Notes: a model not told the origin generated them from the sequence alone. Shown: positions 9,810 to 60,995, numbered from the stretch's first letter. The stretch: 64,000 nt of DNA from a virus (IMGVR_UViG_3300050190_000017), one strand, 5' to 3'. Made by a program: numbers and translations.

Positions 9810-9812
9810 ATA
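9805..9812 (+). promoter_or_regulatory. TGTAAATA box (CTGTAAATAAAGA)
   Basis: Overlaps the stop of gene 9519. Confidence 0.4.
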
Positions 9813-9818
9813 AAGAAC

Positions 9819-34544: not shown

Positions 34545-34568
34545 TAGTGTGGTAGAGAAGTGAAATCG

Positions 34569-34610
34569 AGGGCACGTATTCTTAGCGGAATACGTGCCCT
34601 CTTTTGCGTT
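34569..34610 (+). terminator. rho-independent terminator
   Basis: 13-bp stem AGGGCACGTATTC/GAATACGTGCCCT, loop TTAGCG, then CTTTTGCGTT. Confidence 0.75.
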
Positions 34611-34656
34611 ACGCCCGCAATTTCATTCTAAACATCGCTTCTTTAGGAACAATAGA

Positions 34657-36318
34657 ATGGACCAAACATTAATCACAGCCTCAGAGCTTCTGAACCTCCT
34701 CCAACCTCTTTTTGTTTTAATTGTTGACTACGTTAGCAACGGGCCGGAGAGCAAACCGGACAAGGAAACTGCCCAAGAACTAAAAAGCATTCCTAAAGCA
34801 ATCATCGCTAAGTGGGGAAAGCAACTTCCTTCCCTCCTTCCGTCCATCCAGGCAGCCCTTGCCGGCACGGGTAAAGCAGAACAGTTGGTACTCCTTGGTA
34901 CTGAGATCAAGGAGATGTTCGAGACGTATCGTGCGGAGAAGTCATTCACCTCTCAGGAGATCGACGTACTGAAAGCCCTCGGCCTGTACCTCCGTACCGA
35001 TAGTGAAGCCGCGCTCTCCAAGATTCAGAAGATGGCAGGTATAGTTCATAGTCCTTTCGTTAGCTCTCGGTTTGCTCCCAAACAAGGTCAACAGAAGAGT
35101 GACACGCTCCGCAAGCTAGTGTTCGAGATGGTCGGCCGTGACGACACCGCACTTACTATAGATGAAGCCAAACAGGTTAAGGAAACTCACCCAGAAGAGT
35201 ACGCACAGTACCAAGCATACCGCAAGGAGCACAACCAGGTGTGGAAGGATGCCGTAGTATCCTATGTGCGTAAATCCGGACATGACACAGTTCCCTACGA
35301 GGAGCTCTTGGCCTACCTACACGCCAATGGTATTGAGCACATGCTTCCTGTTGGATTCACAGGCGAGGTTGACGACCTGGGTAGGCTATACACCAACACT
35401 GGTAAGATGATCGACGGTGTCCCCTCGGCTATTATGTTCCCTACCATGATAATGAACAAGCAGTTCGGGAAAGAGGGTGGTAAGGATTTTGTGTTTCAGG
35501 CTATACGTAGCGATGGCGGCCCTGGTCCCTACTTCTACACTTCGGAGTACAAGAAGGAAGCAGCTAAGGCAAAGTTCCAGCACGTCGCTGACCTCGCACC
35601 CAAGATCTTGTCGATGCAGAAAGCCTGGTTCTCCAAGGTTAAACAATTCAAGATTACTGATGCTGAATGTGTAGCCGCCACCATCTTAGAGATCCTGTAT
35701 GAGTTTGCAGCCCGTGTTGGTACTCCAGGTGAAGCGACGTTCGGTGTATCCACCCTGCTGGTAAAACATATGGCTGTAGACCATGCTTCAGGTAACATCA
35801 CTATTCGCTACCTTGGTAAGGACTCCATCAAGACCGTGCATAAGTTGGTAGCGTCTGATCCTACACAGAAGTTTGTTATCAAAGCCTTACTCCAACTGTT
35901 AGCGGGCAAGCAGCCTAAGGACCGAGTGTTCACCGTGGACAAAAGCGCTCGTAAAGTCCCGGTTAATGCCAAGGACGCTAACGCTTACTTCAAAGAGCTA
36001 GGTGCCCCTGCAGGAACAACTGTGCACAAGCTTCGGACCCTGCGAGGTACTCATCTGTTCTCTGAGCTTATGGAGAAGGCTATGGAGAAGCCTCCCAAGG
36101 ACGAGCGTGCTGCACTCGCTATGCTAACGAAGATGGGCGAGCAGGTCGGTAAGTTGCTAAACCATATTAGAACAATGGCTAGCGGTGGAACTAAAGTCAC
36201 GGGCACAACAGCACTAGCCAACTACGTGGACCCAAGCATACAGATCATGTTCTTCCGGCAGTTAGGCTTTCGCATTCCTCGCTTCCTTGAAAAACACGAC
36301 ACAGAGGTGAAGGATTAA
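34657..36318 (+). CDS. type IB DNA topoisomerase-like protein with N-terminal extension
   Basis: ITIRYLGKDSIKTVHKL follows the F.F.GK....H pattern. KLRTLRGTH and ALANYVDPSI resemble the active-site tyrosine motif SKxNYLDPRI of TopIB. The ATG at 34657 has an AGGAAC SD; the track's upstream GTG lies in the terminator stem. Confidence 0.5.
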   Translation: MDQTLITASELLNLLQPLFVLIVDYVSNGPESKPDKETAQELKSIPKAIIAKWGKQLPSLLPSIQAALAGTGKAEQLVLLGTEIKEMFETYRAEKSFTSQEIDVLKALGLYLRTDSEAALSKIQKMAGIVHSPFVSSRFAPKQGQQKSDTLRKLVFEMVGRDDTALTIDEAKQVKETHPEEYAQYQAYRKEHNQVWKDAVVSYVRKSGHDTVPYEELLAYLHANGIEHMLPVGFTGEVDDLGRLYTNTGKMIDGVPSAIMFPTMIMNKQFGKEGGKDFVFQAIRSDGGPGPYFYTSEYKKEAAKAKFQHVADLAPKILSMQKAWFSKVKQFKITDAECVAATILEILYEFAARVGTPGEATFGVSTLLVKHMAVDHASGNITIRYLGKDSIKTVHKLVASDPTQKFVIKALLQLLAGKQPKDRVFTVDKSARKVPVNAKDANAYFKELGAPAGTTVHKLRTLRGTHLFSELMEKAMEKPPKDERAALAMLTKMGEQVGKLLNHIRTMASGGTKVTGTTALANYVDPSIQIMFFRQLGFRIPRFLEKHDTEVKD

Positions 36319-36320
36319 AC

Positions 36321-37352
36321 ATGAAACAATTCAAACTAAACGCAGCAGCACGATTGGTAGCATCCACTATTACTCAGGCAAAGGCTCCAGCAGCCAGTGA
36401 GTGGTGGCAACATCTAGAGCCCGACCAGAAGAAGGAGTACATAGAGGAACACCCCCACTCGAAGTACGCAGAGGACGCTATTCGAGAGGGCTCTAACGAG
36501 GAATCGAAATCCAAGAAGGATGAAGAGGAGTTGGGTACAGAGCCTGCGGCTAAGTCGCAGATTAATCCAGAGCACCGTAAGAAGATTGCAGGTGGCATTC
36601 GTAAACATGCCCCTAAGATTGCCAGCTTCCTTAAGAAGACATTTCCGCTAATCCATGAAGCTACCTCAGCCCTAAAGCATTTAGCCACCGGTAAGGCCCT
36701 AGAGGAAAACCACAAGGAAGCACTATACGACCTCGGTGGTGTAGCCCTCAAAGCTACTCTTAGCTCTGTTGTTGGTGTTCATGGTGCTCAGGTACTCGGC
36801 CGTATTGGTATTACCGCAGTTAACCACGCAGTGGAACACTTCAAAGAGAAGAAGGAACAGTCCGAGGGTAAGGATGACGTTGAGGTCTTCGTCGAGGCTT
36901 TAGCCGATGGTGTAGAGCAAGCTAAGGAAGCCCCGGTTCCTAAAGAGCATGCTGCACCTAAGAGTAGCTACCGTTCTGCTATCGGTCGGCACATCAGGAG
37001 TAAAGCACACCACATTACACAGGTGCTGGATAAGTCCTTCCAGCATATCAAGCCTGCTACCCAAGGTTTGGTTGCCCTAAGCGAAGGACAGAAGCTTTCG
37101 GATGAACAGAAAACCGCAATGAAGAGCCTGGGTAAGATTACTTTGGGCTTAAGTATCGCCGCACTACCTGGTGGACTGGCTGCCCACTTAGCAGCAGGGG
37201 TTGGCTCAGTAGCAATCACCCACGCATTCAAACTAATACAGAGTGGTAAGTTCAAAGATGGACACATCATCCACCACTTCGTAGAGTCGATTGGCGAAGG
37301 CTTGGAAGATGCCTTGCTTGAGCACACTGCTGGTGGTGAGGGGGAAGGATGA
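36321..37352 (+). CDS. KLNAAxRLLA-tagged protein, two internal repeats with Gly/Ala-rich segment (paralog of 37349)
   Basis: N-terminus MKQFKLNAAARLVAST. Repeated module ...KHLATGK...ALPGGLAAHLAAGVGS. Confidence 0.6.
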   Translation: MKQFKLNAAARLVASTITQAKAPAASEWWQHLEPDQKKEYIEEHPHSKYAEDAIREGSNEESKSKKDEEELGTEPAAKSQINPEHRKKIAGGIRKHAPKIASFLKKTFPLIHEATSALKHLATGKALEENHKEALYDLGGVALKATLSSVVGVHGAQVLGRIGITAVNHAVEHFKEKKEQSEGKDDVEVFVEALADGVEQAKEAPVPKEHAAPKSSYRSAIGRHIRSKAHHITQVLDKSFQHIKPATQGLVALSEGQKLSDEQKTAMKSLGKITLGLSIAALPGGLAAHLAAGVGSVAITHAFKLIQSGKFKDGHIIHHFVESIGEGLEDALLEHTAGGEGEG

Positions 37353-38284
37353 AACTAAACGCGGCGCATCGACTGTTAGCTTCGGAGGATTGGTGGGAAG
37401 CTCTTGATGCCGACCAGAAGAAGCAATACATCAAGGATCATCCAGGCTCCAAGTATGCTAAGGATTCCATAAAGGAAGACTCGAAAGAACCCGAGGCTAA
37501 GGATACACCTGAGCCCCGTAAGGCGTCTGCAGGTGTCCTAAGAACCCACGGCCCTAAGATAGCGAGGCTACTCCGAGATTCATTCCCACTGTTATCCGGA
37601 GCTACCGCAGCCCTAAAGCATCTTGCCACAGGGAAGAAGCTAACTGAGGACCATCGGGATGTTCTCATGGAGCTCGGGGATACAGTCCTGAAATCAGCAT
37701 TGAAGTTCGCAGTAGGTAAGGAACAGGCACACCTTATTCATACTGCTGGTCACGTAGGTGTTCACGCAGTGAAATACGCTACGGAACACTTCAAAAAGAA
37801 CAAAGAGAATTCCAATGGTAAGGACGACCTCGAAGTGTTCGTGGACTCCGTGGCCGAGGGTATAGAGAAAGCCGATGTACCTGATGAAGAGGTATCGACA
37901 CCACCTAAGAAGGGTGCCATTGCTCAGCACATTAAGTCTAAGGCCTCACACATAGCTAAGGTACTAGACCGGTCCTTCCCTAGGGTAAAGCAGGCCACCA
38001 CAGGACTTGTAGCACTGAGTGAGGGTACAGAGTTGAGTGCTGAGCAGAAGAAAGCAATCAAGGGCCTAGGGAAGATGGCATTAGGCATGAGTATAGCGGC
38101 ACTACCTGGTGGGTTTGCCGCACACCTTGTTGCTGGTGCTGGCAGCCTAGCTTTAACTAGCGCGCTCAACGCCATTCGTAAAAGGAAAGTTCCGGAGGGC
38201 AGCGTTCTCCGCCACTTTGTAGAATCCATAGGGCAAGGATTAGAGGATGCTGTAGTGAGCAAAGCTCTAAAGGAAGAAGTATGA
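37349..38284 (+). CDS. KLNAAxRLLA-tagged protein, tandem paralog of 36321
   Basis: MKLNAAHRLLASE N-terminus; long stretches align with 36321. Confidence 0.6.
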   Translation: MKLNAAHRLLASEDWWEALDADQKKQYIKDHPGSKYAKDSIKEDSKEPEAKDTPEPRKASAGVLRTHGPKIARLLRDSFPLLSGATAALKHLATGKKLTEDHRDVLMELGDTVLKSALKFAVGKEQAHLIHTAGHVGVHAVKYATEHFKKNKENSNGKDDLEVFVDSVAEGIEKADVPDEEVSTPPKKGAIAQHIKSKASHIAKVLDRSFPRVKQATTGLVALSEGTELSAEQKKAIKGLGKMALGMSIAALPGGFAAHLVAGAGSLALTSALNAIRKRKVPEGSVLRHFVESIGQGLEDAVVSKALKEEV

Positions 38285-38784
38285 TGAAACTAAACGCAGC
38301 ACACAGGCTACTAGCTAGTCAAATCTTCTACCGAGGCCTAACTCAAACCTGGTCGGATGAACACGCAAAGAACCAGCACATCATCTTCATTACTCCTGAT
38401 CGAGACTACGCCTTAGAGTATGCAAAGGATGAACAGCACGTACTAGAATTTCATGCTGACATAGGGCATAGCTTCGACTTTGGTTTCCGAACGCTACAAA
38501 CGGAAGTTCAGCTGAAGGATGTAACCGATCGGGTGAAGCGTGGCATACTCTCGCAATTCCAGGAGGGTCACATCACTAGAGAAAAGGGTATGGAGCTCAT
38601 GGACGAACTAGCAGAGGTAAAGGGTTCCGGTTATAAGCATGTGTGGGAGTGGTACATGCAACTACCTGAGCTAGTTAGGATCCTCAAGGCTGCTGGGTTT
38701 AACTCTGTAGAAGGCAAGGAAGGAGTGAACGACGATATTCCTACCTACGGAGTATTCAGTGTTCACCAACTTAAACGTGTATAA
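38281..38784 (+). CDS. KLNAAxRLLA-tagged hypothetical protein (167 aa)
   Basis: MMKLNAAHRLLASQ; a YRG follows the tag, but no complete ART triad was seen. Confidence 0.55.
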   Translation: MMKLNAAHRLLASQIFYRGLTQTWSDEHAKNQHIIFITPDRDYALEYAKDEQHVLEFHADIGHSFDFGFRTLQTEVQLKDVTDRVKRGILSQFQEGHITREKGMELMDELAEVKGSGYKHVWEWYMQLPELVRILKAAGFNSVEGKEGVNDDIPTYGVFSVHQLKRV

Positions 38785-38821: not shown

Positions 38822-39034
38822 GTGCCTAACGCATTAATCAATAAAGATGTCCGTGAAGGGCGTGGTACTAAGAAGAAATTGGAGAAGGACTGGGAGAAGT
38901 CTAAGAAGGACGCTGAGAAATCGCATCCTGATAACAAGTGGGCTTTGACTAACTACATTTACCAAAACCGGAGGGACGCCTCTGTCTTGGATGACGTAGA
39001 GGTTAGCGCGGCCCGTCGCTTACTGGGTAAGTAG
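38822..39034 (+). CDS. hypothetical basic protein (70 aa)
   Basis: ORF track; GTG start after GGAGAATCAAA. Confidence 0.45.
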   Translation: MPNALINKDVREGRGTKKKLEKDWEKSKKDAEKSHPDNKWALTNYIYQNRRDASVLDDVEVSAARRLLGK

Positions 39035-39097
39035 TAGCACTGACTAGCTGTATTGAATCCGGTGCTAACCCCACCTAACTTCAAATGTGAGGCAGTC

Positions 39098-39250
39098 ATG
39101 ACTAAGGTTAATGTAAGTCAAAACGTGAGTCAGAGTACGACTCAAGAGCAGAACCAGCAACAGCAACAAGGTCCAGGTGAACCTGAGGAGAATGGTCAGG
39201 AGCAGGAACAGGAGCAACCTGGACAAGAGCAGGAACAAGGCGACGAGTAA
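39098..39250 (+). CDS. Gln/Glu-rich low-complexity protein (50 aa)
   Basis: ATG with GAGG SD. The track ORF starts at an upstream TTG. Confidence 0.35.
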   Translation: MTKVNVSQNVSQSTTQEQNQQQQQGPGEPEENGQEQEQEQPGQEQEQGDE

Positions 39251-39336: not shown

Positions 39337-40752
39337 ATGAAGATTAACGCAGCCTCCAGACTACTAGCTAGTCAAAAGTTAGCAACACACGATGGTCGCC
39401 TCTTACTCTTGGGCTTTGGTGCTGTAGGGCAGACGATGTTACCAATGCTCCTCCGCCACATAGATCTGAATCCCTCCAAGATAACTGTTTTGGATAAGGT
39501 AGAGCGCCCTGAATTCGCTCCCTACACAGGCATTCACTACGTAGTGCGTGAGATAGTAGAAGACAACATGGGCTCTACTCTTGAGTCCTTACTAGCTGAA
39601 GGTGATTACCTCGTCAACCTAAGCTTGAACATCGATGGAATAGCTATTGTAGAGTGGTGCCTATCCCATAACGTTATGTACATCGACACGTCCATTGAGC
39701 GTTGGGCTACCTCACCCGACGAGACAATACCCGATCTAGCAGAACGTACTTTGTACACAGAGCATCAAGAGATTAGGGAGATGGCTTCCAAGTACCCAGG
39801 TCATGCTACCTGTGTAGTAACGCACGGGGCTAACCCTGGGCTAGTATCGCATTTCACAAAAGCTGCATTACTCAAGATTGCTAAGGATACCGGATTATCT
39901 ACTGAGGTTCCACAGAACCAAATGGGTTGGGCAGCTCTAGCCGAGGCCACTGATACTAAGGTGATTCAAATAGCAGAACGCGATACACAGATACTGAAGG
40001 TTCCTAAGCGCGTACATGAATTCGTTAACACCTGGAGCTGCGAAGGCTTCTGGGCTGAGGGTAGAGCACCTGCTGAACTAGGTTGGGGGTCGCACGAACC
40101 GCAAGAGGTTGGTGGCTTAACTGTGCAGGGGAATTCAGCGTATCTCGACACTCCCGGAGTAGCCACCCTCGTGAAGTCCTGGGTGCCTCTTGGTGGTACG
40201 TATAACGGATTCCTAATCCAGCACTCAGAGGCAGTAACGATCAGTGAGTATCTATCCACTGATTCCTATAGACCTACAGTGTACTATGCGTATCAGCCGA
40301 CAGATGCAGCATTGGCCTCAATCCATGAGATGCGTGGACAAGAATTGTGGATGCACCGTAATACTAGGATTGCTAAGAACTCCATACTAAGTGGTATCGA
40401 TGAACTAGGGGTGTTGCTCCTAGGTCATGGTAAGAATGCGCTGTGGTATGGCTCTCAATTAGATATAGAGGAAGCTCGATCGTTAGTTCCTGGTCAGAAT
40501 GCAACTACTGTGCAGGTATGTGCCTCACTGCTAGGGGCTATAGTATGGACGTTAGAGAATCCGAGAATGGGTTATTGTGAGCCAGAAGACTTACCCTTCG
40601 ACTTTGTGCTGTCAATAGCTAAACCCTACCTTGGTCCTATGGTGGCTTACTATTCAGATTGGAGTCCCTTGGATAACAGAGGGCACCTGTACAAGAAGGA
40701 TTTCGATGAAGATAACGAATGGGCTTTCACAAACTTTTTAGTAGGGAAATAG
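39337..40752 (+). CDS. KLNAAxRLLA-tagged homospermidine synthase-like / saccharopine dehydrogenase-family NAD(P)-binding enzyme
   Basis: Tag MKINAASRLLASQ, then the Rossmann motif LLLLGFGAVGQ. Length of 471 aa and overall pattern fit bacterial HSS. Confidence 0.55.
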   Translation: MKINAASRLLASQKLATHDGRLLLLGFGAVGQTMLPMLLRHIDLNPSKITVLDKVERPEFAPYTGIHYVVREIVEDNMGSTLESLLAEGDYLVNLSLNIDGIAIVEWCLSHNVMYIDTSIERWATSPDETIPDLAERTLYTEHQEIREMASKYPGHATCVVTHGANPGLVSHFTKAALLKIAKDTGLSTEVPQNQMGWAALAEATDTKVIQIAERDTQILKVPKRVHEFVNTWSCEGFWAEGRAPAELGWGSHEPQEVGGLTVQGNSAYLDTPGVATLVKSWVPLGGTYNGFLIQHSEAVTISEYLSTDSYRPTVYYAYQPTDAALASIHEMRGQELWMHRNTRIAKNSILSGIDELGVLLLGHGKNALWYGSQLDIEEARSLVPGQNATTVQVCASLLGAIVWTLENPRMGYCEPEDLPFDFVLSIAKPYLGPMVAYYSDWSPLDNRGHLYKKDFDEDNEWAFTNFLVGK

Positions 40753-40755
40753 AAA

Positions 40756-41379
40756 ATGAAGTTAAACGCAGCTACTAGGTTAATCGCAGTCACCTTGACA
40801 GAGTATCTGAAGGACTTGAAGTCACAAGGTATAGAGCCTGTAGCAAAGGGCTCTCACGCCTTTGTCTTTCAGCATCTAACAGATCCGACGACGATGGTGA
40901 AGGTGTTCACTCACGACCCTGCGTTCGAATCGTATACGAAGTTCTGTCAGGCTAATCCCCACAATCCGTATCTATTGAAGATCAAGGGCGAGCACCACGA
41001 CGAACACGGTCTGGATCCTGATCCGAAGTACAAAGGCCACATTTGGAACTCAGATAAGACAGGACTTCACGTGGTCTTCATGGAGAAACTGACTCCTATG
41101 TCAGAAGCCCAGTTCAAGAAGTTCATCTATGGACTGGAGACTATATGCTTTGTACCGCACCAGAAAAACCTCTCGGTATACCAGTCTAAGGTTAGTCCGC
41201 TGTGGACCCGCCTATGTGAGATAAAGACTTCGCGTGGCGCACCCTTAGATCCGAATCTAAAACAATTCGCCGAGTGGCTTGTAGCTGAGTACAACACTGG
41301 TGATGGCTACCCGGACATCCACAAGGACAACTTCATGATGCGCGGAAGGCAGGTTGTCATAGTGGACCCGACTTCTTAG
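40756..41379 (+). CDS. KLNAAxRLLA-tagged protein-kinase-like fold protein
   Basis: Tag, then a G-loop-like GSHAFVF, a Lys in MVKVF and catalytic-loop-like DIHKDNFMM. Confidence 0.45.
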   Translation: MKLNAATRLIAVTLTEYLKDLKSQGIEPVAKGSHAFVFQHLTDPTTMVKVFTHDPAFESYTKFCQANPHNPYLLKIKGEHHDEHGLDPDPKYKGHIWNSDKTGLHVVFMEKLTPMSEAQFKKFIYGLETICFVPHQKNLSVYQSKVSPLWTRLCEIKTSRGAPLDPNLKQFAEWLVAEYNTGDGYPDIHKDNFMMRGRQVVIVDPTS

Positions 41380-41388
41380 GACCTGACA

Positions 41389-41958
41389 ATGAAACTAAAT
41401 GCAGCTACACGACTACTAGCACACAAAGATGGTGAAGAATGGGTCCCTGGGGTGAGGGGGTACCACTACGCGGTTGGTTGCCTACTCCTAGCTGCAGACA
41501 CACTGAACTTCAGTTTCCAACTCCGTAGCACTACTTCGGATACGCCAAACACGTACGGTTGTTGGGGAGGTTCTATCGACGGTAACGAGGAAACGTTCAC
41601 CGCACTCAAACGGGAACTTAGAGAGGAAACAGGATACACAGGTGAGATGAAGATATTCCCTCTCATGACGTACTATGATGCAGACCGCGGATTTCAGTAC
41701 GCTAACAATCTCGTAGTCATTCCTAAGCAATTCGAGATTAATTCTCCACCTGAATTCGCTGAGGAAACCGCAGGTAACGTATGGGTGCCGTATAATGAGT
41801 GGCCTGATCCCCTACACCCTGGGCTAGAATCATTGCTAGCTGATCCACAGTCGATGCGCTCAGTTGAGATGGAAATCTCCAGAATAGAAAACGCGAAGAA
41901 GAATGGCGTCGACCCTCTGAAGATGAGCGCGGCGTACAGACTTACCCACTTTGATTAG
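41389..41958 (+). CDS. KLNAAxRLLA-tagged Nudix hydrolase
   Basis: Tag, then the Nudix box GGSIDGNEETFTALKRELREETGY. Confidence 0.75.
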   Translation: MKLNAATRLLAHKDGEEWVPGVRGYHYAVGCLLLAADTLNFSFQLRSTTSDTPNTYGCWGGSIDGNEETFTALKRELREETGYTGEMKIFPLMTYYDADRGFQYANNLVVIPKQFEINSPPEFAEETAGNVWVPYNEWPDPLHPGLESLLADPQSMRSVEMEISRIENAKKNGVDPLKMSAAYRLTHFD

Positions 41959-43709: not shown

Positions 43710-45107
43710 ATGGTCAAGACTAATGCAGCCGCTCGCCTCCGCGCTTCCTCGGGTATTACTGCCACGAAGAAGTCAGCAACAGCTAAGAACAAAACAGTAG
43801 CCCGAACTCGTGTCCACGCGATCGAACTACCGAAGTTTCGTTACATCGATGACGTCACTCGCTTCCTAGATACTATGAAGGAAGAGATCGACGAGAACGA
43901 GAAGGTTATTAAGGTACACCAAACTCAGTTGGCCTTCCTAAAGAAGCCAAAGGAGTGGGTTGGTGCTACTCTAGTTAAGGCTGCTGAGATGGAACTCACC
44001 ATCAAAGAAGGTGAAGGTGGGTCAAATAAATCACGACTCAAGCGTAAGATTGATCCAGAACTTACTAAGGTGGTGGTCCCTAACGTTAAGAAGCTGGAAG
44101 AGCAGTACTCTCTCTCTGAGGACCTATACGAGAAACATCGTACCCTAGAAGCAGTGGAAGCTCAACTCTCTATGCAGTTCCCGGATCGTCGTGGTGAAGC
44201 GTATACAGCTACTATAGCTGCACTCCATGAGTTGAAAGGTAAGGTTGCTAAGCAGTTGAAAACGGTCTTAGGCTTCCTAAATGAAGTGGCAGCCAAGCAT
44301 GTGCCGAAGACCTTCGAGAAGTACATCGACGTTATTCGTCAGGAAGTGCAAGAGCACGTTATGTTTGAGGACTCCAATCTGTTCCTCTACGTATCGACTT
44401 CTGCTGAAGGCCAGATCGTTTTCACCTACTACCTGATGCTGATTAACGCTACTAACGATGAAGGTAAGGTAACGCCTAGCCTGTACATCTCAGTGCAATG
44501 GGTTGTTGGTGAGTCTACTACGATTCAGATTAACCCAGAGTACGAACTCCCGGGTCAACTGCTGAAAGAGGGAGGTGAATCGGTTGGCTCAGCAGGCGAG
44601 GCAGTTAAAGCTATCTCTGATCTCTTAGCTCTAGAAGACTTCAGCTCCTCGCTCGGTACTGTGCCGTTGTCCACGCAACTGCGGAAACCCCTGAACGAGT
44701 TGAAGCCAGAGATGTTTAGCTACAAGGATTTCATTCAGAAGCTGGATGTAGATGAAGATAAGCTAGTGTTCAAGCTGCGTAAAGGTGTTGAGCCTGAGCA
44801 AGCCAAGGAAGTTGCGTATGCCCTGTACCAGGAAGTAAAGGGGTTGTTTAAGAGCTCACGCACTGCTAAGATTCGAATGAAGCCCTCTAGCACGCAAATT
44901 GAATTCACAGTGACCAACGTAGCGAAGGGTAGAGAGGTCTCAGTGCACGATGCTGAATTCCTAGGCCAGAAGTTTGGATTAAATAACGCCCAACTCCGAA
45001 AAGTTCTTTTGATTCTGAACAGTGGCATCGGAGAAGAAAGTAAGCCTTCCGAAGCTCCTGAAACCAAAGCTGAGCAGCCGACAGGTAAAGAGAAGCTGTG
45101 GCTCTAG
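43710..45107 (+). CDS. KLNAAxRLLA-tagged hypothetical protein (465 aa)
   Basis: MVKTNAAARLRASS; AAGGAATAATAATG. Confidence 0.6.
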   Translation: MVKTNAAARLRASSGITATKKSATAKNKTVARTRVHAIELPKFRYIDDVTRFLDTMKEEIDENEKVIKVHQTQLAFLKKPKEWVGATLVKAAEMELTIKEGEGGSNKSRLKRKIDPELTKVVVPNVKKLEEQYSLSEDLYEKHRTLEAVEAQLSMQFPDRRGEAYTATIAALHELKGKVAKQLKTVLGFLNEVAAKHVPKTFEKYIDVIRQEVQEHVMFEDSNLFLYVSTSAEGQIVFTYYLMLINATNDEGKVTPSLYISVQWVVGESTTIQINPEYELPGQLLKEGGESVGSAGEAVKAISDLLALEDFSSSLGTVPLSTQLRKPLNELKPEMFSYKDFIQKLDVDEDKLVFKLRKGVEPEQAKEVAYALYQEVKGLFKSSRTAKIRMKPSSTQIEFTVTNVAKGREVSVHDAEFLGQKFGLNNAQLRKVLLILNSGIGEESKPSEAPETKAEQPTGKEKLWL

Positions 45108-45148: not shown

Positions 45149-45418
45149 ATGTTTAAACTCAATGCTGCTTCTCGATTACTTTCTATGTACGAGGTCCACG
45201 CTGACCCTTTTGAAGGCTGGATCAACAGCCTCCAGTTCACCTACGATCGCCCAGAGGGTGCTAACTATGTCACGGTAGACGCCACACTCTCTGAGGTAGT
45301 CTCCAAGTTGAAAAGCGATGGGTGGACGTCAACAGGCTCCGGTGAGTTTAGTAAAGGTGAGCACAAGTGCCACGTAGCCAAAGAGGGTAACAAGGCTCGC
45401 ATAACCGACCGAGGCTAA
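45149..45418 (+). CDS. KLNAAxRLLA-tagged hypothetical protein (89 aa)
   Basis: MFKLNAASRLLSMY. Confidence 0.55.
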   Translation: MFKLNAASRLLSMYEVHADPFEGWINSLQFTYDRPEGANYVTVDATLSEVVSKLKSDGWTSTGSGEFSKGEHKCHVAKEGNKARITDRG

Positions 45419-45424
45419 CGCATA

Positions 45425-45763
45425 GTGGCTAACACTAGAGAGATTAATATGAAAGCTGCACACCGACTAGTAGCGTCCCTTATAGAGGAGCAAGCCATGT
45501 TGAGTACCCACCTGATTGAACTACTAGCGAACTATGGTATCGAAGCGGAGTCACCAGATGACGCAAATAATTCCCTGCTAGTGTACGAGGAAAGCCCCCG
45601 TATCGTCATGGCCTTGGCGTTAGCTCGATGGATCTCAGATGAACCTCGGCAGGTCAACGGTGGTATGTACTGTGCGGGCACTACAGTTCAATTGAAACAG
45701 AAGGGACAGACTATCCGCCTACTGACGACAGCGCCAGGAAGGTCTGTACTATGGCTAATATGA
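45425..45763 (+). CDS. partially tagged hypothetical protein (112 aa; MKAAHRLVASL starts at the second Met, 45449)
   Basis: ORF track; true start at 45425 or 45449. Confidence 0.5.
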   Translation: MANTREINMKAAHRLVASLIEEQAMLSTHLIELLANYGIEAESPDDANNSLLVYEESPRIVMALALARWISDEPRQVNGGMYCAGTTVQLKQKGQTIRLLTTAPGRSVLWLI

Positions 45764-46473
45764 AAGAGACAAAAGCAATGCACGCACCTAGGCACAGAAC
45801 AGGTGAGACTGCCCCAATAGCAGATGGGGAACTATCAATTGGCGATCCTGACATCTGGGGTAACGGCATTAACAACACGTTAGTTCAGCCATCTATAGGA
45901 GTATCAGGCGTCAAGCTGAACGCCGCACACAGGCTGTTAGCTGCAGCTGAACCCCTCCCTGAATGGGTTTCACATACTATACAGCAGTGGATAAGTGGCG
46001 GTTCTGGTAGATTCACCTCCGCGCAAATGCAGGATGCCCTAAAAGCTTTCCACGTCGTTAGAGAAAGCTACCGTAGTACACTACCGAAGGTAGTGTATCG
46101 AGGGTTGCTTATCCCTGAGACCGCGCTGACAAAGATCCTAAACGGCAAGCCGTTGAAAGTAGAGCCCGCTGTTCTTTCATCCTGGACCTCAGATCCTAAA
46201 GTTGCATTGAAGTACGCCAACGTCACCTGGGATACACCTTTAGAACAGATCGGAATTATATTAGCTATTCATACGCCACCGTCAGCTCTGTTCTATATAG
46301 ATAAAAAGTTCATACGTACTGTCCTGGATGATCCATTTTCCCACGATCAGAAAGAGGTAGTGGTTCAGGGGCCAGGTGTGTCCCACGTTAGCAGAGACAA
46401 CATACTAGCCGTAGTCTCAGAGACTAATACCCCTCTTAAGGTTTCAGAGTACCTGAAGGGAATTGAAAAATGA
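45751..46473 (+). CDS. Alt/C3-like mono-ADP-ribosyltransferase (R-S-E class) with internal KLNAAHRLLA tag
   Basis: VVYRGLL (Arg), LSSWTSD (STS-like) and DQKEVVVQGPG (QxE plus hydrophobic strand) in canonical order and spacing. The tag begins at about residue 56. Confidence 0.65.
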   Translation: MANMKETKAMHAPRHRTGETAPIADGELSIGDPDIWGNGINNTLVQPSIGVSGVKLNAAHRLLAAAEPLPEWVSHTIQQWISGGSGRFTSAQMQDALKAFHVVRESYRSTLPKVVYRGLLIPETALTKILNGKPLKVEPAVLSSWTSDPKVALKYANVTWDTPLEQIGIILAIHTPPSALFYIDKKFIRTVLDDPFSHDQKEVVVQGPGVSHVSRDNILAVVSETNTPLKVSEYLKGIEK

Positions 46474-46574
46474 ACAACACATTTGTCTACTTCGCACAGC
46501 CAACAGAAAACACATTAGTAGCTCCGAACCTAACGCCTATGCTTGCTCCAGGTGAAACGACATGCAATTAAATG
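46473..46574 (+). pseudogene. truncated duplicate of the 5' end of gene 47092 (33 codons), running into the start of 46562
   Basis: Nucleotides 46473-46560 are about 85% identical to 47092-47180. Both encode MNNTFVYFAQPTENTLVAPNLT(S/P)MLAPGET. Confidence 0.6.
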
Positions 46575-47095
46575 CAGCCTCTAGGCTCGTAGAGTCTATG
46601 CCTATTAGGATGCGAGAGAACTACACTCAACTAGAATTTGATCGAGACGTAGAGTTTCTTGAAAAACGATTGAAAACTAAGCCTGCTGTACCACTTGGCA
46701 CAAAAGAAGGTTTGTCCTTATACTACCTGAAGTTGACTTATTCTCGTGACTTTTTCTTAAAAGATAGAGATAGAATAATTGGAATATTGTCTACGACGGC
46801 CAAAGGCAACATGGTTATCAGTGTTTTTATCGAAGAAGAATACAGGGGACGACATTTAGGTCTTGTACTATATCTAGCAGCTATTCATGTTCTAGGTGAA
46901 CTTCAAAGTTCAAGCATTATAGGTATAATGGCAGTTAGAACCTGGAGATCCGTATCTAAGTACTATTCAGTGGAACTACTAGATCATCTTCAGGTACCTG
47001 TGGATTTCTCTTGGGGTACCGATACAATACCTATTGTAAAAGGTAAACCTATAAATAAACTTAGAGGGAATTTTTACTTTAAGGTGAAAGCATGA
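46562..47095 (+). CDS. KLNAAxRLLA-tagged GNAT-family acetyltransferase
   Basis: MQLNAASRLVES, then the GNAT motif-A-like VFIEEEYRGRHLGLVLYLAAIHVL. Confidence 0.55.
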   Translation: MQLNAASRLVESMPIRMRENYTQLEFDRDVEFLEKRLKTKPAVPLGTKEGLSLYYLKLTYSRDFFLKDRDRIIGILSTTAKGNMVISVFIEEEYRGRHLGLVLYLAAIHVLGELQSSSIIGIMAVRTWRSVSKYYSVELLDHLQVPVDFSWGTDTIPIVKGKPINKLRGNFYFKVKA

Positions 47096-48618
47096 ACAAT
47101 ACATTCGTCTATTTTGCACAGCCCACAGAGAATACATTAGTCGCACCAAACCTAACGTCTATGCTTGCTCCAGGTGAAACGATCACCAGCATAGTATTGA
47201 CTGCGGTAACACCGACTACTGCTCCACCGCTCACAGCAGTCTTGCAGTCAGGTGCTAATCCTGTAACGCAGATCCTGTTATCCGGTGGTATTGCTGGTAC
47301 TGCTTACGGCTTCCAGATTCTGGCTACTACTAATGCTCGGGTGCTCACAGCTCAGGTAGCAGTCACAGTTCAGGATGAATTATTTGTACCGTACGCCACA
47401 CAGAATCCGCAGGCGTTCACCGACCTGGTTGATGAAATCCAAGCAGGCATGGCAGCAATTGGTACTGCTATCTTTAGCTTCCCTGCTACTATTGACCCAC
47501 GTGGAGGCTTTGTAACCTGGGAACTCTTAGCCTCAGACGGCACAGTGTACGCAGCAGGTAACGCCTACAACTATTTGGTACAGTCGAACGGTTTGGCTAA
47601 CACAGTCCTAGCTAACGCAGTTATCACAGTGCCCTCTACAGTACCACCTAGCTTAGATAACCAACGGTATCAACTTCGATATACGTTAGAACTCCCGCAG
47701 GTACAGAACCTGCAAAATGATCCACTGCAAGGTCAGGTATCGCAGAATGCTTTCTTCTCCTACGAGAACATCCGTGTAGTAGGGTTGAATACGGTACCTT
47801 TGGGCACGCAGTCTACAGTTGAACTGCAAGGCAGCCCTGCTAACCTATCGATTGTACTAGATCAGCTGTACGATAACGTCACCGTCGAATTGTGGGCTGG
47901 CGGTGTACAGGTAGCAGCCCCGTCCCTTATTGGTAACTCAGAACGTACTGCTAATGGTTGGTACTACGCAGGGGTCATCGACACCCAGCAGTTGATGGTA
48001 TCCCTTGTCCCCTACACTGTGATCTGGAAGTATTGGTATTCGTCACAAGCCTCGCTCGTCTACCAGGAATCAGCAGACCTGTTCGTTATCAATGCATCTA
48101 TGATGACAGCTATTACTGATGTACGGTCGAAGATCAACAAGGCGAACACTACGCTGTATGGTACTCCTGACATGCTGTACCCTAACCAAACGATCATGAC
48201 TTGGTTGCGTCGGGGTGCGGATGCTTTCAACGGTGCGTACGGGGTATTCACCAACTTCAGCTTCACCAATGCCTTAGGGGTCATCCGTGAATACTGGTTG
48301 ATGCACGCTGAGATGTTTGCTCTGGAATCGCAGGTAACGGCAGAAGCAGAGAAGGCATTCCAGTTCCAGGGTGCTGCTATTACCTTGGACATTGATCGTA
48401 CAGCAGGGTTCGATGCTGCTATCTCTAAGATTCAGTCGAGGTTGGACAATGAGCTGAAGGCGTTGAAGCAGAACTTGGTAATGCGTGGGGTGATGGGGGG
48501 CGATGGCTCCACCGATCCGACTATGCTACAGCACGGCGCTATCGGTGCAGTGGGTATTACGATCTCTCCTGTTACCATGTGGGGTAGATACGGCAGAGGC
48601 TACGGTCAGCTATTCTGA
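47092..48618 (+). CDS. hypothetical protein (508 aa), possibly virion-associated
   Basis: ORF track. Its 5' end is duplicated upstream of the inserted GNAT gene. Confidence 0.6.
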   Translation: MNNTFVYFAQPTENTLVAPNLTSMLAPGETITSIVLTAVTPTTAPPLTAVLQSGANPVTQILLSGGIAGTAYGFQILATTNARVLTAQVAVTVQDELFVPYATQNPQAFTDLVDEIQAGMAAIGTAIFSFPATIDPRGGFVTWELLASDGTVYAAGNAYNYLVQSNGLANTVLANAVITVPSTVPPSLDNQRYQLRYTLELPQVQNLQNDPLQGQVSQNAFFSYENIRVVGLNTVPLGTQSTVELQGSPANLSIVLDQLYDNVTVELWAGGVQVAAPSLIGNSERTANGWYYAGVIDTQQLMVSLVPYTVIWKYWYSSQASLVYQESADLFVINASMMTAITDVRSKINKANTTLYGTPDMLYPNQTIMTWLRRGADAFNGAYGVFTNFSFTNALGVIREYWLMHAEMFALESQVTAEAEKAFQFQGAAITLDIDRTAGFDAAISKIQSRLDNELKALKQNLVMRGVMGGDGSTDPTMLQHGAIGAVGITISPVTMWGRYGRGYGQLF

Positions 48619-49302: not shown

Positions 49303-49683
49303 ATGTTTGATTTGCGCGCCGCATACCGGCTTAGGGATTCAGAACTTCGTTCAAGCACGAATGTACAAACCCCGGCAGTTGCCAATGTACCATTAGAGGC
49401 AGCCTTCGACCAAACACGCGACCCTGATTTACAGAAGATTGAGCAGCAACTTCGTAAGGTAAACGTGTTCTTCACGCTGTCCAAGAACCACTTGTATCAT
49501 AAGAGCAATCGAGGAGACGTGGTTGAGGAGGCCGAGCTCTGTTCAGAGATCCTTAACGATCTTGGGTATCAGTTGCACATTCAACCCGGCATCTTTGAAC
49601 GTTCAAGCTTTGCGCTCAAGGGTACGAAGGGTTTGGTCCTCCAGAAGCTCAACAACGATCTTCGTATTTTCTTTTCAGTTTAA
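49303..49683 (+). CDS. hypothetical protein with divergent tag-like N-terminus MFDLRAAYRLRDS (126 aa)
   Basis: In-frame ATG of track ORF 49108-49683. The minus-strand ORF 49083-49484 is judged a shadow. Confidence 0.45.
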   Translation: MFDLRAAYRLRDSELRSSTNVQTPAVANVPLEAAFDQTRDPDLQKIEQQLRKVNVFFTLSKNHLYHKSNRGDVVEEAELCSEILNDLGYQLHIQPGIFERSSFALKGTKGLVLQKLNNDLRIFFSV

Positions 49684-50236: not shown

Positions 50237-50554
50237 ATGTGGGCACGTCGGACAAGACCAGCTAAGAGAAACGCGTTCGGCGTGGCTACTATTAGGCGAG
50301 ACTCGTACAATACCCAGAGCGGTATGTCGGTAAAAGCGGGCTGGTGGGAAATTAGTGCTGCAGTCCGTAAGCGATCTGGAGGAAAGTGCGAGGCGCGTAT
50401 TAATGGTGTGCGGTGTAACGCTCCCGCTAAGGACTGCCACCACATAGTACCGCTCTCAAAGGGTGGTGCGAACCTAATAAGTAACCTCCTACACATTTGT
50501 GAGGACTGCCATAATCGACGCCATACTCACCTAATGCGAGCCCGAGGTAAATAA
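50237..50554 (+). CDS. HNH endonuclease
   Basis: CEARINGVRCNAPAKDCHHIVPLSKGGANLISNLLHICEDCHNRRH. Confidence 0.7.
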   Translation: MWARRTRPAKRNAFGVATIRRDSYNTQSGMSVKAGWWEISAAVRKRSGGKCEARINGVRCNAPAKDCHHIVPLSKGGANLISNLLHICEDCHNRRHTHLMRARGK

Positions 50555-50808
50555 TGCAGATACAACTTAATGCGGCCTCTCGACTACTAGCTGCTACAAA
50601 GGTACAGCCTGGAATGAAAGTAGCAGAAGCCCGAAACCCCGACGAGTATATTGGAACTGTACTCGATATTAAAGTAGCGCGTAAAGAAGAAGTCGCTATG
50701 GTAGACGTAGGCGGAGGTGTGCGATCTATGTACCGCTTACCAGAACTTGTAGAGTACAAGGGAAAGAAGACACGGCCTGCTGGTATTACGTTCCCTGGCC
50801 TAACGTAA
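50554..50808 (+). CDS. KLNAAxRLLA-tagged small protein (84 aa)
   Basis: MQIQLNAASRLLAATK. Confidence 0.55.
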   Translation: MQIQLNAASRLLAATKVQPGMKVAEARNPDEYIGTVLDIKVARKEEVAMVDVGGGVRSMYRLPELVEYKGKKTRPAGITFPGLT

Positions 50809-50824
50809 TAAATAAGGATTCACA

Positions 50825-51295
50825 ATGGAAAATGAACAGCAACTCCAAGAGCTTATAGCTCTGTTTCTTAAAGTTAATCCCGATCCATCTGATGATCAAT
50901 TCCATGCACTAGCGGGCGCCTGCGGAGTAGATCATGCTACGCTCGAAGCAATCAGCTACTCCATGCTTGCTGAGTCAGAAGAAGTGCTGGCCGATGCAGA
51001 AGTAGACGTAGAAAGTATCGGTGGCGGGCAAGGTGATGTAGGTCTCAGCGATGCCCAACAAGTACTGGACGGTGACTATGATCCTAACGTTACTCAAACT
51101 GATGACCTGCTGCTTAATGACGGAGCTCCTGCTTCTGATACATCAACTCAACGTCTGCAGGACACGACGTTGAACGACGGAGTGAGTGTCGGTGATACAG
51201 GTTCGGGTATTGCTAGTCAGGAGATGCTGTATAGCGATGGATTAGCTCCTCTGAAGTTGGGTGCATCAGCTCGTTTGCTTGCCACTGCTAAGTAA
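50825..51295 (+). CDS. acidic protein ending in a C-terminal tag-like LKLGASARLLATAK
   Basis: ORF track; tag-like motif at the C-terminus. Confidence 0.55.
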   Translation: MENEQQLQELIALFLKVNPDPSDDQFHALAGACGVDHATLEAISYSMLAESEEVLADAEVDVESIGGGQGDVGLSDAQQVLDGDYDPNVTQTDDLLLNDGAPASDTSTQRLQDTTLNDGVSVGDTGSGIASQEMLYSDGLAPLKLGASARLLATAK

Positions 51296-52635: not shown

Positions 52636-55600
52636 ATGGCCGAGTTGAGACCAACTACCAACCTAGTTGTCCCTGAGAGTTTGCAGCTGGATAAGCAGGC
52701 GCTACAGAGCAACTTCTTCTACATCTACCGCGCACTATACAGTGGCCCGGAAATCCTGTTCATGACCAAGTTGTGGGCATGCTCACTGCTCCCTTCTATT
52801 GGCAATGATAAGCGCCTCGGTAGTGTACGACAGGGTATTCGTAAGGCAACCAAGTTCGTAATGGACACCACGCCTGCTGGGTACCTGACCATCAAGAAGG
52901 TGATGGGTGCTGATCCGTACTTTCGAGTATCCGTTCCACTGTTCGCTTTCAATAAGAATAGCCAAGGACCCCTGAGTCAGTTGCTTGAACAAAATTTATT
53001 GGGCTATGCGTTTGCCAAGGAGATTCCTGAGTCAACTCCTGAGCATCATCAGAACATGACGGAGTTGCAGCAACGCTTGAAGGATGAAGGTGATCCTACT
53101 ATTCCAATGAGCGTAGAGATCCCTGCTTCCCGAGTTATTTCGAGCATTAGTGGTTTAGACGCTAGGGCTAAGGTTGCATTGCAAGCCTGTCTTCTAGGAA
53201 TTCGTGTTAAGGTTAAAGGTGGGTTGGCTGTTATTTACGCAGACTTTAAGATTTCCAAGGAAGAAGCACAGCAGCTGACCTCCACGCACTGGATTGAGTT
53301 GCGTGATATTGACCTTTACCCTATGCTGTTGCAGTGGGTAACGACGGGTTTCGGTTCAGAAGGATTGGCCCCCTTTGTAGCATTCCCTATCTCTAAGATC
53401 GCTGCTACTCTGCCTAAGTCTCATACGCAATATGCACGCATTAACAAAGACGGGATTTCTATTACCCCTAAGGGGCGCCCTGTCTATCTTCCTAAGGAAC
53501 TGAATCAAACTCTTCAGTACGAAGACCGCTATACCCAGGCGGGGACGCGCGCTGATGGCAGTTATGCTCTCGTAGATATTAACGAGGGCGCTTCTGCTAT
53601 GGAGGCTGGCTCAGAAGTTAAACAGAAGTTGCCGCCTAACATTCCAGTATTGATCGACTGGGTTAATAACAAGTACAGCTATACTAACACCTCAGGCTTT
53701 CTTGAGGTAGAAGACCTTACTCGGTATCAAGCAGCCGACGTCTCACACATAAGGGCGCTCCTACAAGAACGTATTGTCACGGACAAGAATATAGCACGTA
53801 TCGCTGCACTTGGTGTTCCTGCTAACGTGCATCCTGCATCCTTTAAGGTCCTTGCCTCAGACGTAGAGGGTTTTGCGAATCTACCACAGGCGGGCGTCGA
53901 AGACAACTTAGATCAGTGGTTCGCCTACTGGGCTAGCCGCTTTGAGAAAGATGAAGGCCATCCTGTTACATTTGCGGACATAAGCTCTGATCGTCTTGGA
54001 TATGGTCCTTTCCGCCCTATTGCTCGTTACTTTAAGACTATCAAGGGTGCGGTACTCTCCAACTTAGACGCAGTGTACGCTCGTTACTCGGTGTCCTACG
54101 TTATGGAGAACTTGGCATGGTTAATACTGGTGGTTGAGTACTCCTCTGATTTTGAGGTACTCAAAGCACAGGATAGAACCAATCGTAGAGCGGCTACAGA
54201 TCAGGGTGTAACCAAGGGCTGGGTACCCCCCTCAATTCCCCTGCTGTCACCTGTGGTAGGTATGCTGCCCCACCAGATCAAGGTTCGTAACCTACTCAAG
54301 GACAGCCCTGACTTTGCTATCCTACCAGTCCAGGCGGGCGGTGGCAAATCGGTCATCATCTTGACCGATGTACTGTATGAGATCAAAGCTAACCGTAGTC
54401 AACCTTATTTGATTTTGTGTCCAGGTCACTTAGTTGCCAACTATGTGAAGGAGATCGTGTTCTTCACTGGGGGTAAGTTGAATGTTATAGCTATCAATAG
54501 TTATGCATTCGTTCAGAATGGGTTACCTAGATTGAAGGCTATGCTGGAGAAGGCTCCCCGTAACACAGTAGTGGTTGCTGACTATGATGTGTTGAAGTGG
54601 AGACAACGTGCTCTGTGTTACGGTACTACGCCGACTACCATCTTCCCGGCTATCGATTTCTTGCGCCAGTTTGGATTTGGGTACGTAGCTCTCGACGAGG
54701 CGCACAAGGTTAAGAACGATACTGCACGTACGCGTGCGACTATGTCATTGATTACTGACATTCCAAAGAAGCGACTAGCTTCTGGTACTATGGCTCATGA
54801 CTCTCCGTCAGATCTGGCAATGCAGATTGCTACTATAGATCCAACGTTATTTGGTACTCGAGATGAGTTCAACTTACGATATGGTGCCGAGGTTCAGGGT
54901 AATCGAGTTATCGCTTGGAAACCAGGTGCGCAACAGGAGATCATGCGGAAGATCAAGAGTCGTATAGTAGTAGCGGGTGCTATGCGTAAAGAGTGGGCTG
55001 CACTTCTTCCGAAGAAGACTGAGTGGATTAAGGGTGTCAACCTAACGGACGCTCAGTACTCTGTCTACAATGATATTCTAGACGGTATTATTGACCGTAT
55101 TAAAGAGGATGCAAAGAAGAACAAAGCACTACAGAAGTTTGTGAATCCAGAGGCCGAAGGAACTGACGGAGAAGAAGGAGAGGATGAGGTAAAGGATGAG
55201 GACGCAGGTGAGGATATGGCGAACCTGCTGAAGCCCTATCTAGCCCGGCTTGAGCAGTTCATGATTGCTCCTGCCTCCGATATACTAGGCGATCGAGTAC
55301 TAAAGGGTGCTGATCGAGTTAGCCCGAAAGCTCAACTCATGGTAGACCGAGTTAAGCTGCATATAGACAAGGGCTACCCAGGTAAAGTTTTGGTGTTCAC
55401 TAACTATGTGGAATCTGCCGAGGAACTTTATCGGTTGGCAGGACCTGAACTACAGAAGATGGGTATTCTGTACAAGGCGGGTAACAAGGATGTGGACGGT
55501 GATCGTTTCGAGAAGGATGACCGTATAAAGTGGATGGTAGGTGTTGAGCAATCCATGAACGAAGGCCTTAACTTCCAGTTCGCGTCTCGACTCCTACGCG

Positions 55601-58105: not shown

Positions 58106-58402
58106 ATGAGAATCCAATTGAATGCTGCAGCCCGTCTTGTCGAAGTTAGTGCAGCAGTTCCTAACAAGATAAAGAACGAAGTTATGCGGACGCTAACCTC
58201 GAAGGGATTCACCGTAGACCGCCAAGGGGACGATGCTTTTATAGTGCATGAACCTAAAGAAAAGGTTATTGAAACTCTAGAGGCTGCTGGTTGGGAGTAC
58301 GATAACGCCTACGCAGAGCTAACGCGGGATGAGGGAGAGTGGAGCCTGGCACTGAAGAGCTCTGCTTCAGCTACTAAGCTAGAATTTTTGTGGGAAGGCT
58401 AA
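58106..58402 (+). CDS. KLNAAxRLLA-tagged small protein (98 aa)
   Basis: MRIQLNAAARLVEVS; TAAGGAGTAGTAAATG. Confidence 0.55.
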   Translation: MRIQLNAAARLVEVSAAVPNKIKNEVMRTLTSKGFTVDRQGDDAFIVHEPKEKVIETLEAAGWEYDNAYAELTRDEGEWSLALKSSASATKLEFLWEG

Positions 58403-60898: not shown

Positions 60899-60995
60899 CT
60901 TGTCTACGACTTCTTGTAGTTTCACGCTATCCTCAATTTTAATCTGTGTTAAGGAATTCCATCTCAAACACTTTTTAATCTCTAGAGAGGATGCA

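Follow-up and report, generated by a model that had tools for sequence, protein, structure and literature searches.

A Candidate Head-Loading Peptide Shared by a Predicted Homospermidine Synthase, a Kinase-Fold Protein, and a Nudix Hydrolase of a Jumbo Phage

Introduction

The capsid-targeting sequence (CTS) of phage T4 is carried by the internal proteins IPI-III and by the ADP-ribosyltransferase (ART) Alt, and in phage P1 the anti-restriction protein DarA is located inside the head. Domains of the ART, Zeta toxin, SprT, DarA, and Nudix types have been predicted to be head-packaged and injected (PMC5512222, PMC9503650). In the chlorovirus PBCV-1, a homospermidine synthase (HSS) and several kinases are virion-associated (PMC7019647), and the HSS of phage phiRSL1, which depends on the RNA polymerase of its host, is biochemically functional and converts putrescine to homospermidine (PMC9992855). 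Here, we describe a 12-residue peptide, referred to as the tag, on proteins encoded by IMGVR_UViG_3300050190_000017, a viral DNA stretch of 64,000 nucleotides that we call the window. The tag is borne by ∼16 window proteins, most of them unrelated to one another. They include an HSS, a kinase-fold protein, and a Nudix hydrolase, which are encoded by consecutive genes at 39337-41958, and ∼13 others.

The window is assigned by sequence comparison to a jumbo myophage of the phiRSL1 lineage because its HSS, its connector-class protein, and its gene order match those of phiRSL1. The connector-class protein is 58-59% identical to its counterparts in phiRSL1 and in the Burkholderia phages BcepSauron and BcepSaruman, and the set of topoisomerase IB, Nudix, and HSS genes is syntenic with phiRSL1 ORF108-110. 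A megablast search of isolated phages with the region gave no nucleotide match, and tblastn searches of isolated phages with the kinase-fold protein and with the tagged protein encoded from 37349 likewise gave none. The three enzyme families and the HSS and Nudix genes of phiRSL1 are already known. Full-text literature searches found no description of the tag peptide, and relative to the papers searched the shared address peptide, its clade-wide spread, its list of cargo, and the tagged HSS are new.

Results and Discussion

Sequence and Conservation of the Tag

In the window, the tag has the 12-residue consensus M-K-[LI]-N-A-A-x-R-L-[LI]-A-[ST] (written out, MKLNAAHRLLAS) and is amphipathic and basic. 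A position matrix was built from the window copies and applied with a threshold of ≥12 bits, which returns 14 sites, all on the + strand, which is the coding strand, and none on the minus strand. By chance, ∼0.64 sites would be expected from random peptides of equal composition, and each of 10 Markov-simulated windows gave 0-1; the leave-one-out scores of the genuine copies range from 9 to 39 bits. The HSS bears the tag as residues 1-12 (MKINAASRLLAS, 39337-39372, +, 36.5 bits), the kinase-fold protein as MKLNAATRLIAV (40756-40791, +, 35.3 bits), and the Nudix hydrolase as MKLNAATRLLAH (41389-41424, +, 37.1 bits).

The tag is predicted to lie outside the folded domains. In the HSS, it precedes residue 19, where the alignment with solved HSS structures begins. 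In the AlphaFold2 (AF2) model of the kinase-fold protein, residues 1-12 are without secondary structure, and the pLDDT is <50 for residues 1-4 and averages 50 over residues 1-10. In the AF2 model of the Nudix hydrolase, residues 1-18 have a pLDDT of <50; a short helix is placed over residues 5-10, and a further one covers residues 181-187, in a second, C-terminal copy of the tag. The peptide is thus detached and of low confidence in both models. C-terminal or internal copies also occur in the products of 38822-39034, 50825-51295, and 45751-46473 and in P0275, a 303-residue homologue of the Nudix hydrolase; together with the copy at the Nudix C-terminus, they indicate that a free N-terminus is not required.

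The same peptide recurs among relatives. Through the HSS and the connector-class protein, 15 metagenomic and isolate loci were collected; near-duplicate and unrelated loci were set aside, and 12 related jumbo-phage loci were counted together with the window. In this set, the tag stands at 83 of 527 open reading frame (ORF) N-termini, with the consensus M-K-[IL]-N-[AS]-A-x-R-L-x-A-[ST]; one locus, L004, has 15 copies. Most of the closest metagenomic homologues of the HSS, the kinase-fold protein, and the Nudix hydrolase carry it, and phiRSL1 has a slightly longer variant, AAVxRLxxT.

The codons that specify the tag vary from copy to copy (AAA CTA AAC GCA GCA, AAG ATT AAC GCA GCC, and CAA TTA AAT GCA GCC). 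These synonymous (wobble) differences point to selection on the peptide and not on the DNA, which bears on the notion that the shared N-terminus has no role at the protein level and is instead a cassette boundary kept by recombination or a favorable translation-initiation region. Recombination at the tag is indeed suggested by two observations. Very close HSS homologues can differ only in their first 12 residues: P0012 and phiRSL1 have TKYHKPEGKIVILGFG in common, preceded by the tag in P0012 and by the bacterial-type MDKVGNIQLDGF in phiRSL1. Moreover, relatives differ in what follows the tag, the domains 3′ of it having been exchanged or lost. In a neighbor-joining tree of HSS, tagged forms fall into at least two groups that are interleaved with untagged forms, so that, taken with the contrast between P0012 and phiRSL1, the peptide behaves as an exchangeable module. 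However, the amino acids are kept while the codons differ, the consensus survives among relatives whose connector proteins are 40-63% identical, and in a set of 40 tagged proteins with no other relationship to one another, R8 never varies and L9 is present in ≥90%. A boundary or initiation signal with no function in the protein is accordingly a reading to which we attach very little weight.

Location of Tagged Genes and Candidate Role of the Tag

All tag copies of the window fall within 36.3-58.4 kb, between the topoisomerase and prohead-protease genes and on both sides of the connector-class gene; the first 36 kb contain none. The tagged genes adjoin those for the connector, the prohead protease, and the scaffold-like and structural proteins and run in the same direction as these; their products are separate ORFs of 84-471 aa. 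In phiRSL1, positions 1-220,600 of 231,255 bp (∼95%) were scanned, and each of the 10 clear copies belongs to a head-gene cluster. They occupy 58-78 kb, a region that includes the connector and the protease and extends up to the major head protein ORF136, with the exception of ORF210, which adjoins the portal gene ORF211. Tagged phiRSL1 proteins include ORF109, 111, 120, 123, 124, 126, 127, 133, and 210. The domains found behind the tag in relatives are ADPrib_exo_Tox (2e-28), Zeta_toxin (4e-20), DarA_C (4.9e-10), a SprT-like metallopeptidase (L009:2399-3700), an anthrax-lethal-factor-like domain (ATLF), and a second kind of Nudix domain.

The confinement of the tag to head-gene clusters, the effector-type cargo, and the precedent of T4 lead us to favor, by a modest measure, a role in which the tag docks cargo into the prohead and is a functional equivalent of the T4 CTS. 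An earlier note on this DNA, made from the sequence alone, had spoken of a virion or effector tag; the head-gene position and the cargo context make this the best-supported reading, in which the tagged proteins are candidates for packaging. The peptide would form a short amphipathic helix and dock with it on some part of the prohead during assembly; the tagged proteins would in this way end up inside the head as cargo and exit with the DNA at the next infection. The HSS, the kinase-fold protein, and the Nudix hydrolase would be three of a ∼16-item cargo set. A phage that relies on host RNA polymerase would thereby obtain a ready-made first wave of host-modifying and metabolic enzymes, and the dependence of phiRSL1 on its host polymerase fits a need for such premade enzymes. 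In some cargo, the tag may then be cut off at A-[ST]-E by the prohead protease.

Several observations weigh against head loading. A Glu at the putative A-[ST]-E cleavage position behind the tag is present in just 15 of the 83 copies (18%), and not in the window HSS, so processing would not be general. The C-terminal and internal copies are unlike the T4 signal. phiRSL1 has an active HSS without the tag, although its gene lies in the same cluster, which implies that packaging is not essential for HSS function and that tagging is optional. Finally, PaBG, the nearest relative with a published virion proteome, has no tag among the N-termini of its 49-kb head/tail region, and its proteome is therefore no evidence for or against the packaging of tagged proteins.

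Some of these points would also suit a docking peptide for a hub outside the capsid, such as a phage or host protein (e.g., RNA polymerase or the ribosome), a membrane, or a cytoplasmic assembly site, at which the enzymes would be gathered in the infected cell. The tag occurs at N-termini, at C-termini, and internally, as a general short linear motif does, its amphipathic and basic character is compatible with such docking, and the HSS of phiRSL1 functions untagged. We nevertheless regard a noncapsid hub as unlikely, given that the tagged genes are found only in head-morphogenesis clusters, both in the window and in the scanned part of phiRSL1, and that DarA_C and toxin-type domains, which typify injected proteins and would be harmful if free in the producing cell, are among the cargo. 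For a membrane in particular, the Ala-rich face of the peptide would probably be poorly suited to insertion.

A processing or turnover signal can also be envisaged: the tag would be recognized by the prohead protease or by the adjacent SprT-like protease, or it would act as a degron and so limit protein lifetime. The cluster contains the genes for both proteases, A-[ST]-E closes many of the tag copies, ..VVAATE stands close to the N-terminus of the phiRSL1 major head protein, and the internal copy of P0275 coincides with a domain boundary. Set against this are the low frequency of Glu after the tag, the placement of the best-conserved residues (N, AA, R, and L) upstream of any such site, and the C-terminal copies, which lie 2-8 residues from the stop, where cleavage would have little effect. 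We consider this explanation improbable and retain head loading as the preferred one.

The Three Tagged Enzymes

The three ORFs listed in the earlier note are present on the + strand, separated by spacers of 3 and 9 nt. The first (39337-40752) encodes a protein of 471 aa that scores above the gathering cutoffs of both PF03435 (9.3e-23, 81.4 bits, cutoff 25.1) and PF16653 (2.6e-23, 83.9 bits, cutoff 31), which places it within the HSS/Sacchrp_dh family, as had been proposed from its length and sequence pattern. In a phmmer search of the PDB, residues 19-469 match the solved HSS of Legionella (2ph5, E = 1e-114) and of Blastochloris (4plp, E = 2.6e-106), and the identity to phiRSL1 ORF110 hss is 61.8%. 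The Rossmann NAD-binding motif LLLLGFGAVGQ, read from the sequence at residues 22-32 (39400-39432, +), aligns with the motif of the Legionella enzyme. Mutagenesis of Blastochloris HSS has shown that N162, E237, H296, and E298 are essential (PMC4725965). Their contexts are present in the window protein as THGANPGLV, FWAEG, and GFLIQHSE and match the mutagenesis-primer peptides of that study, a mapping made by local context and not by a numbered alignment to 4plp. In the Legionella alignment, the THGANPGLV and GFLIQHSE sites are conserved, and only the E-G pair is kept at the E237 site.

We read the product of 39337-40752 as a working enzyme, predicted to be a catalytically intact, NAD-dependent HSS of the bacterial type, because it matches solved HSS from end to end, keeps the essential residues, and has a functional orthologue in phiRSL1. 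The same evidence leaves unsupported the suggestion of the earlier note that the protein is repurposed, for example as an NAD-dependent modifier; such a homologue, acting for instance on protein or nucleic acid, would no longer make homospermidine. Its extra N-terminal peptide and its effector-type neighbors would fit such a change of function, but the full-length match at E = 1e-114, the retained GANPG, FWAEG, and HSE contexts, and the 62% identity to the functional phiRSL1 enzyme make it the least credible of the explanations considered here. Nor is a virion-tagged polyamine enzyme as unexpected as had been thought, since the virion-associated HSS of PBCV-1 means that a packaged HSS would not be without precedent. 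A tag on the Motura HSS was suggested by a tblastn match that began at query residue 3; translation of the upstream DNA shows that there is none.

A broader scenario, which we put forward tentatively and with less conviction than head loading itself, is that the tag is a transferable cargo-loading address throughout the clade and that each virion holds 10-16 enzymes, among them a working, NAD-bound HSS. The HSS could then be injected as a metabolic first strike, or it could convert putrescine to a triamine that condenses DNA more strongly, inside the porous prohead, while the 220-kb genome is packaged.

The second gene (40756-41379, +) encodes a protein of 207 aa. Its sequence has no Pfam, NCBIfam, or PDB sequence match, and it matches phrog_15752, which comprises T7 gp0.7-type kinases, at 3.4e-6. 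Its AF2 model has a pLDDT of 87.9. In a Foldseek comparison with the PDB, the top 50 matches all have the kinase fold (probability 0.94-1.0), and the best matches in BFVD are protein kinases of T7-group phages (E down to 7.7e-10, TM up to 0.59). An exhaustive profile search finds 304 family members at E ≤ 1e-3, mostly of 170-250 residues. Across 75 aligned members, N70, D187, and N192 do not vary, and G30, G32, the β3 lysine K49 (40900-40902), and the metal-binding D204 (41365-41367) are present in ≥90%; of these members, 21 match PF10707 (YrbL, kinase clan) and 2 match PF18762 (Kinase-PolyVal). The model, its structural matches, the phrog_15752 match, and the retention of K49, D187, N192, and D204 bear out the kinase-like fold that the earlier note had read from motifs in the sequence, and we assign the product, on the strength of its predicted structure, as a minimal protein kinase of ∼200 residues of the T7 gp0.7 type. 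Among the motifs themselves, AKGSHAFVF, VKV (with K49), and the catalytic loop D187-I-H-K-D-N192 (41314-41331) are present, whereas the first glycine of the G-loop is replaced, the loop reading A30-K-G32 where the family has G30-x-G32.

Some members of the kinase family (P0124, P0128, P0149, and P0155 are examples) are 400-1000 aa long and have 4-7 matches each to the N-lobe region of the kinase, as repeated partial kinase modules. Untagged members often start with MKxxELxxEE, which resembles the T4 signal; similar HSS starts look like the native bacterial N-terminus, so that the resemblance is given no weight.

The third gene (41389-41958, +) encodes a protein of 189 aa that is orthologous to phiRSL1 ORF109 and matches PF00293 (6.6e-9, 36.3 bits, cutoff 21.1) and phrog_1198 (1.3e-20). 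The Nudix box (GX5EX7REUXEEXGU), already recognized as canonical, is exact and spans residues 61-83 (41569-41637, +), as G61-x5-E67-x7-R75-E76-L-x-E79-E80-x-G82-Y83, and the alignment of the family shows no change at E67, R75, E76, E79, or E80. The AF2 model (pLDDT 84.7) has the Nudix fold, and the product is thus predicted to be a Nudix pyrophosphohydrolase. Among possible substrate classes such as ADP-ribose/NAD, RNA caps, and oxidized dNTPs, none is singled out: no NCBIfam equivalog comes near its cutoff, and the best structural matches are scattered over NUDT17, RenU, NUDT15, Ap4A hydrolase, NudC, and Dcp2. Nearly all of 19 homologues are tagged, and the tag is followed by the invariant AHK..E.W.PGVRGYH. 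The C-terminal copy in the window protein (LKMSAAYRLTHFD, 41917-41955, +) is degenerate; close homologues end in clearer copies, for example with DPMKLAAAHRLLCK directly before the stop, and several other homologues retain only this second tag. In P0275, the Nudix domain is followed by an internal tag and then by a C-terminal extension with GRHR, ParB-like by eye; this protein looks like the product of two tagged genes that have fused.

Other Genes of the Locus

The cluster is opened by an untagged type IB topoisomerase gene (34594-36318, +; PF01028, 9.4e-20; syntenic with phiRSL1 ORF108). A strong hairpin terminator at 34568-34601, upstream of the topoisomerase, consists of a 15-bp perfect stem followed by a T-run and is terminator-like on both strands. 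It overlaps the listed GTG start of the topoisomerase gene, so the true start is probably a downstream ATG (MDQTLITASELL). After this hairpin, no convincing terminator was found up to 47.5 kb, where the terminator scan ended. The closest syntenic relative, L004, has an untagged SIR2-family gene (L004:5727-6569) between the topoisomerase gene and the first tagged gene, and this gene has no counterpart in the window.

The first tagged genes, 36321-37352 and 37349-38284 (both +), encode two paralogous helical proteins, in which the tag is followed by a shared module, WW..L...QKKQYIxxHPxSKYA. Scans against Pfam and PHROGs assigned no family to these proteins or to the tagged product of 38281-38784 (+), and the module is covered by no Pfam family. 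In relatives, the WW..QKKQYI module heads Zeta-toxin kinases and an ART (L003:11442-12740, L008:2958-4511, and L005:2179-2925). A 70-aa basic protein (38822-39034, +) carries the tag at its C-terminus, ending in VEVSAARRLLGK before the stop, and its homologues in L004 likewise end in the tag. Directly 5′ of the HSS gene lies an untagged ORF of 65 aa (39053-39250) that is nearly all Q, E, G, and P (..QQQQQGPGEPEENGQEQEQEQPGQEQEQGDE), and L004 has a similar Q/E-rich ORF at the equivalent place (9736-9882).

Downstream of the Nudix gene, tagged genes were identified by motif and matrix at 43710-45107, 45149-45418, and 45425-45763, followed by 45751-46473, with an internal tag at 45910, and 46562-47095, whose product has a weak GNAT match (all +). 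The product of 45751-46473 consists of a 53-residue N-terminal part, the tag, and a 175-residue body. Its homologue in L004 (15900-16118) stops 8 codons past the tag, which points to the tag as a site where gene bodies are acquired or deleted. The products of 38281-38784 and 45751-46473 have R-S-E-like motifs that, by eye, suggested ARTs; Pfam, PHROGs, and NCBIfam gave nothing for this reading, and BLASTP against the genuine tagged ART of L005 matched the tag only.

The connector-class head protein (508 aa, 47092-48618, +) was identified by its profile match to phrog_17327. It is assigned to the connector class only; a role as the portal was ruled out, as the phiRSL1 portal is ORF211, which lies elsewhere, beside the terminase. 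The matrix further identifies tagged genes at 49303-49683 and 50554-50808, a gene with a tag-like C-terminal end at 50825-51295, and the last tagged gene, 58106-58402 (MRIQLNAAARLVEV), directly 5′ of the prohead-protease gene (all +). Within the head-gene cluster lies a gene for a 1525-aa helicase (52636-57213). The virion proteome of PaBG includes a 221-kDa "RuvB helicase-like" protein, gp202, which is a candidate counterpart of this helicase only.

The head maturation (prohead) protease (58406-59224, +; phrog_18299, 5.9e-90) has no sequence match in the PDB or Pfam. Directly 3′ of its gene is that of a 542-aa SprT-like metallopeptidase (59233-60861). The next gene, 60900-62567 (+), lies between the protease and structural genes and encodes a hyperacidic protein with repeated GGSTHF.NEE.DT.E.RRMNA units; judged by where it lies and by its composition, it may be a scaffolding protein. 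RefSeq gives the label "ATPase" to the phiRSL1 homologue, ORF134, which looks mislabeled. The gene for a virion structural protein follows (62637-63314, +), an order also seen in phiRSL1, where it is followed by the gene for the major head protein, ORF136.

Implications and Comparison with Known Systems

If the tag is a head-loading address, the arsenal of injected proteins of a whole jumbo-phage clade could be read from sequence, and it would span kinases, ARTs, toxin-type kinases, proteases, Nudix enzymes, and a polyamine synthase. The 12-residue peptide would provide a handle for loading foreign proteins into large capsids. The phage would also be the second independent virus, after PBCV-1, with an HSS in its particle, and the role of viral polyamine synthesis would become approachable in a bacterial system in which tagged and untagged (phiRSL1) HSS can be directly compared.

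The nearest described locus is phiRSL1 ORF108-110, which contains orthologous genes for topoisomerase IB, Nudix, and HSS and in which the Nudix protein, ORF109, is tagged. There, however, the HSS has the bacterial-type N-terminus MDKVGNIQLDGF in place of the tag, no kinase gene lies between the HSS and Nudix genes, and the order of these two genes is reversed. The HSS of PBCV-1 is likewise virus-encoded and, in that virus, is functional and virion-associated beside packaged kinases (PMC7019647), but PBCV-1 is a giant virus of eukaryotes, its capsid and its way of packaging are unrelated, and no shared address peptide is known there. The kinase-fold protein resembles T7 gp0.7 in its small kinase fold and in its setting, a bacterial host on whose RNA polymerase the phage depends (in the case of phiRSL1). 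It differs in that gp0.7 is the product of the first early gene, is untagged, and is not encoded among head genes, and in that the window protein, at 207 aa, is without the C-terminal host shutoff region.

With the polyvalent proteins (Iyer et al. 2017, PMC5512222; PMC9503650), the tagged set shares ART, Zeta toxin, SprT-type, DarA, Kinase-PolyVal-like, and Nudix domains and a predicted early action after injection. Here, each domain has a small protein to itself, headed by an address peptide, and is not part of a giant multidomain polypeptide or of a MuF/portal fusion. Encapsulin cargo-loading peptides are also short, can occupy either terminus, and load enzymes into a shell of the HK97 fold, but they have another consensus, and encapsulins are nonviral and do not release their cargo.

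The T4 CTS differs from the tag in its core (MKTYQEFIAE, compared with NAAxRL here) and in its uniform Glu cleavage site, which the tag does not have. The tag, known here from sequence alone, is further set apart by its C-terminal and internal copies and by its ∼16 cargo genes per genome. Both are short N-terminal peptides common to unrelated proteins encoded near head genes, both have cargo that includes host-modifying enzymes, which in T4 are delivered with the DNA and in this lineage would probably be, and in both the stretch that encodes the signal is a boundary at which cargo genes are exchanged.

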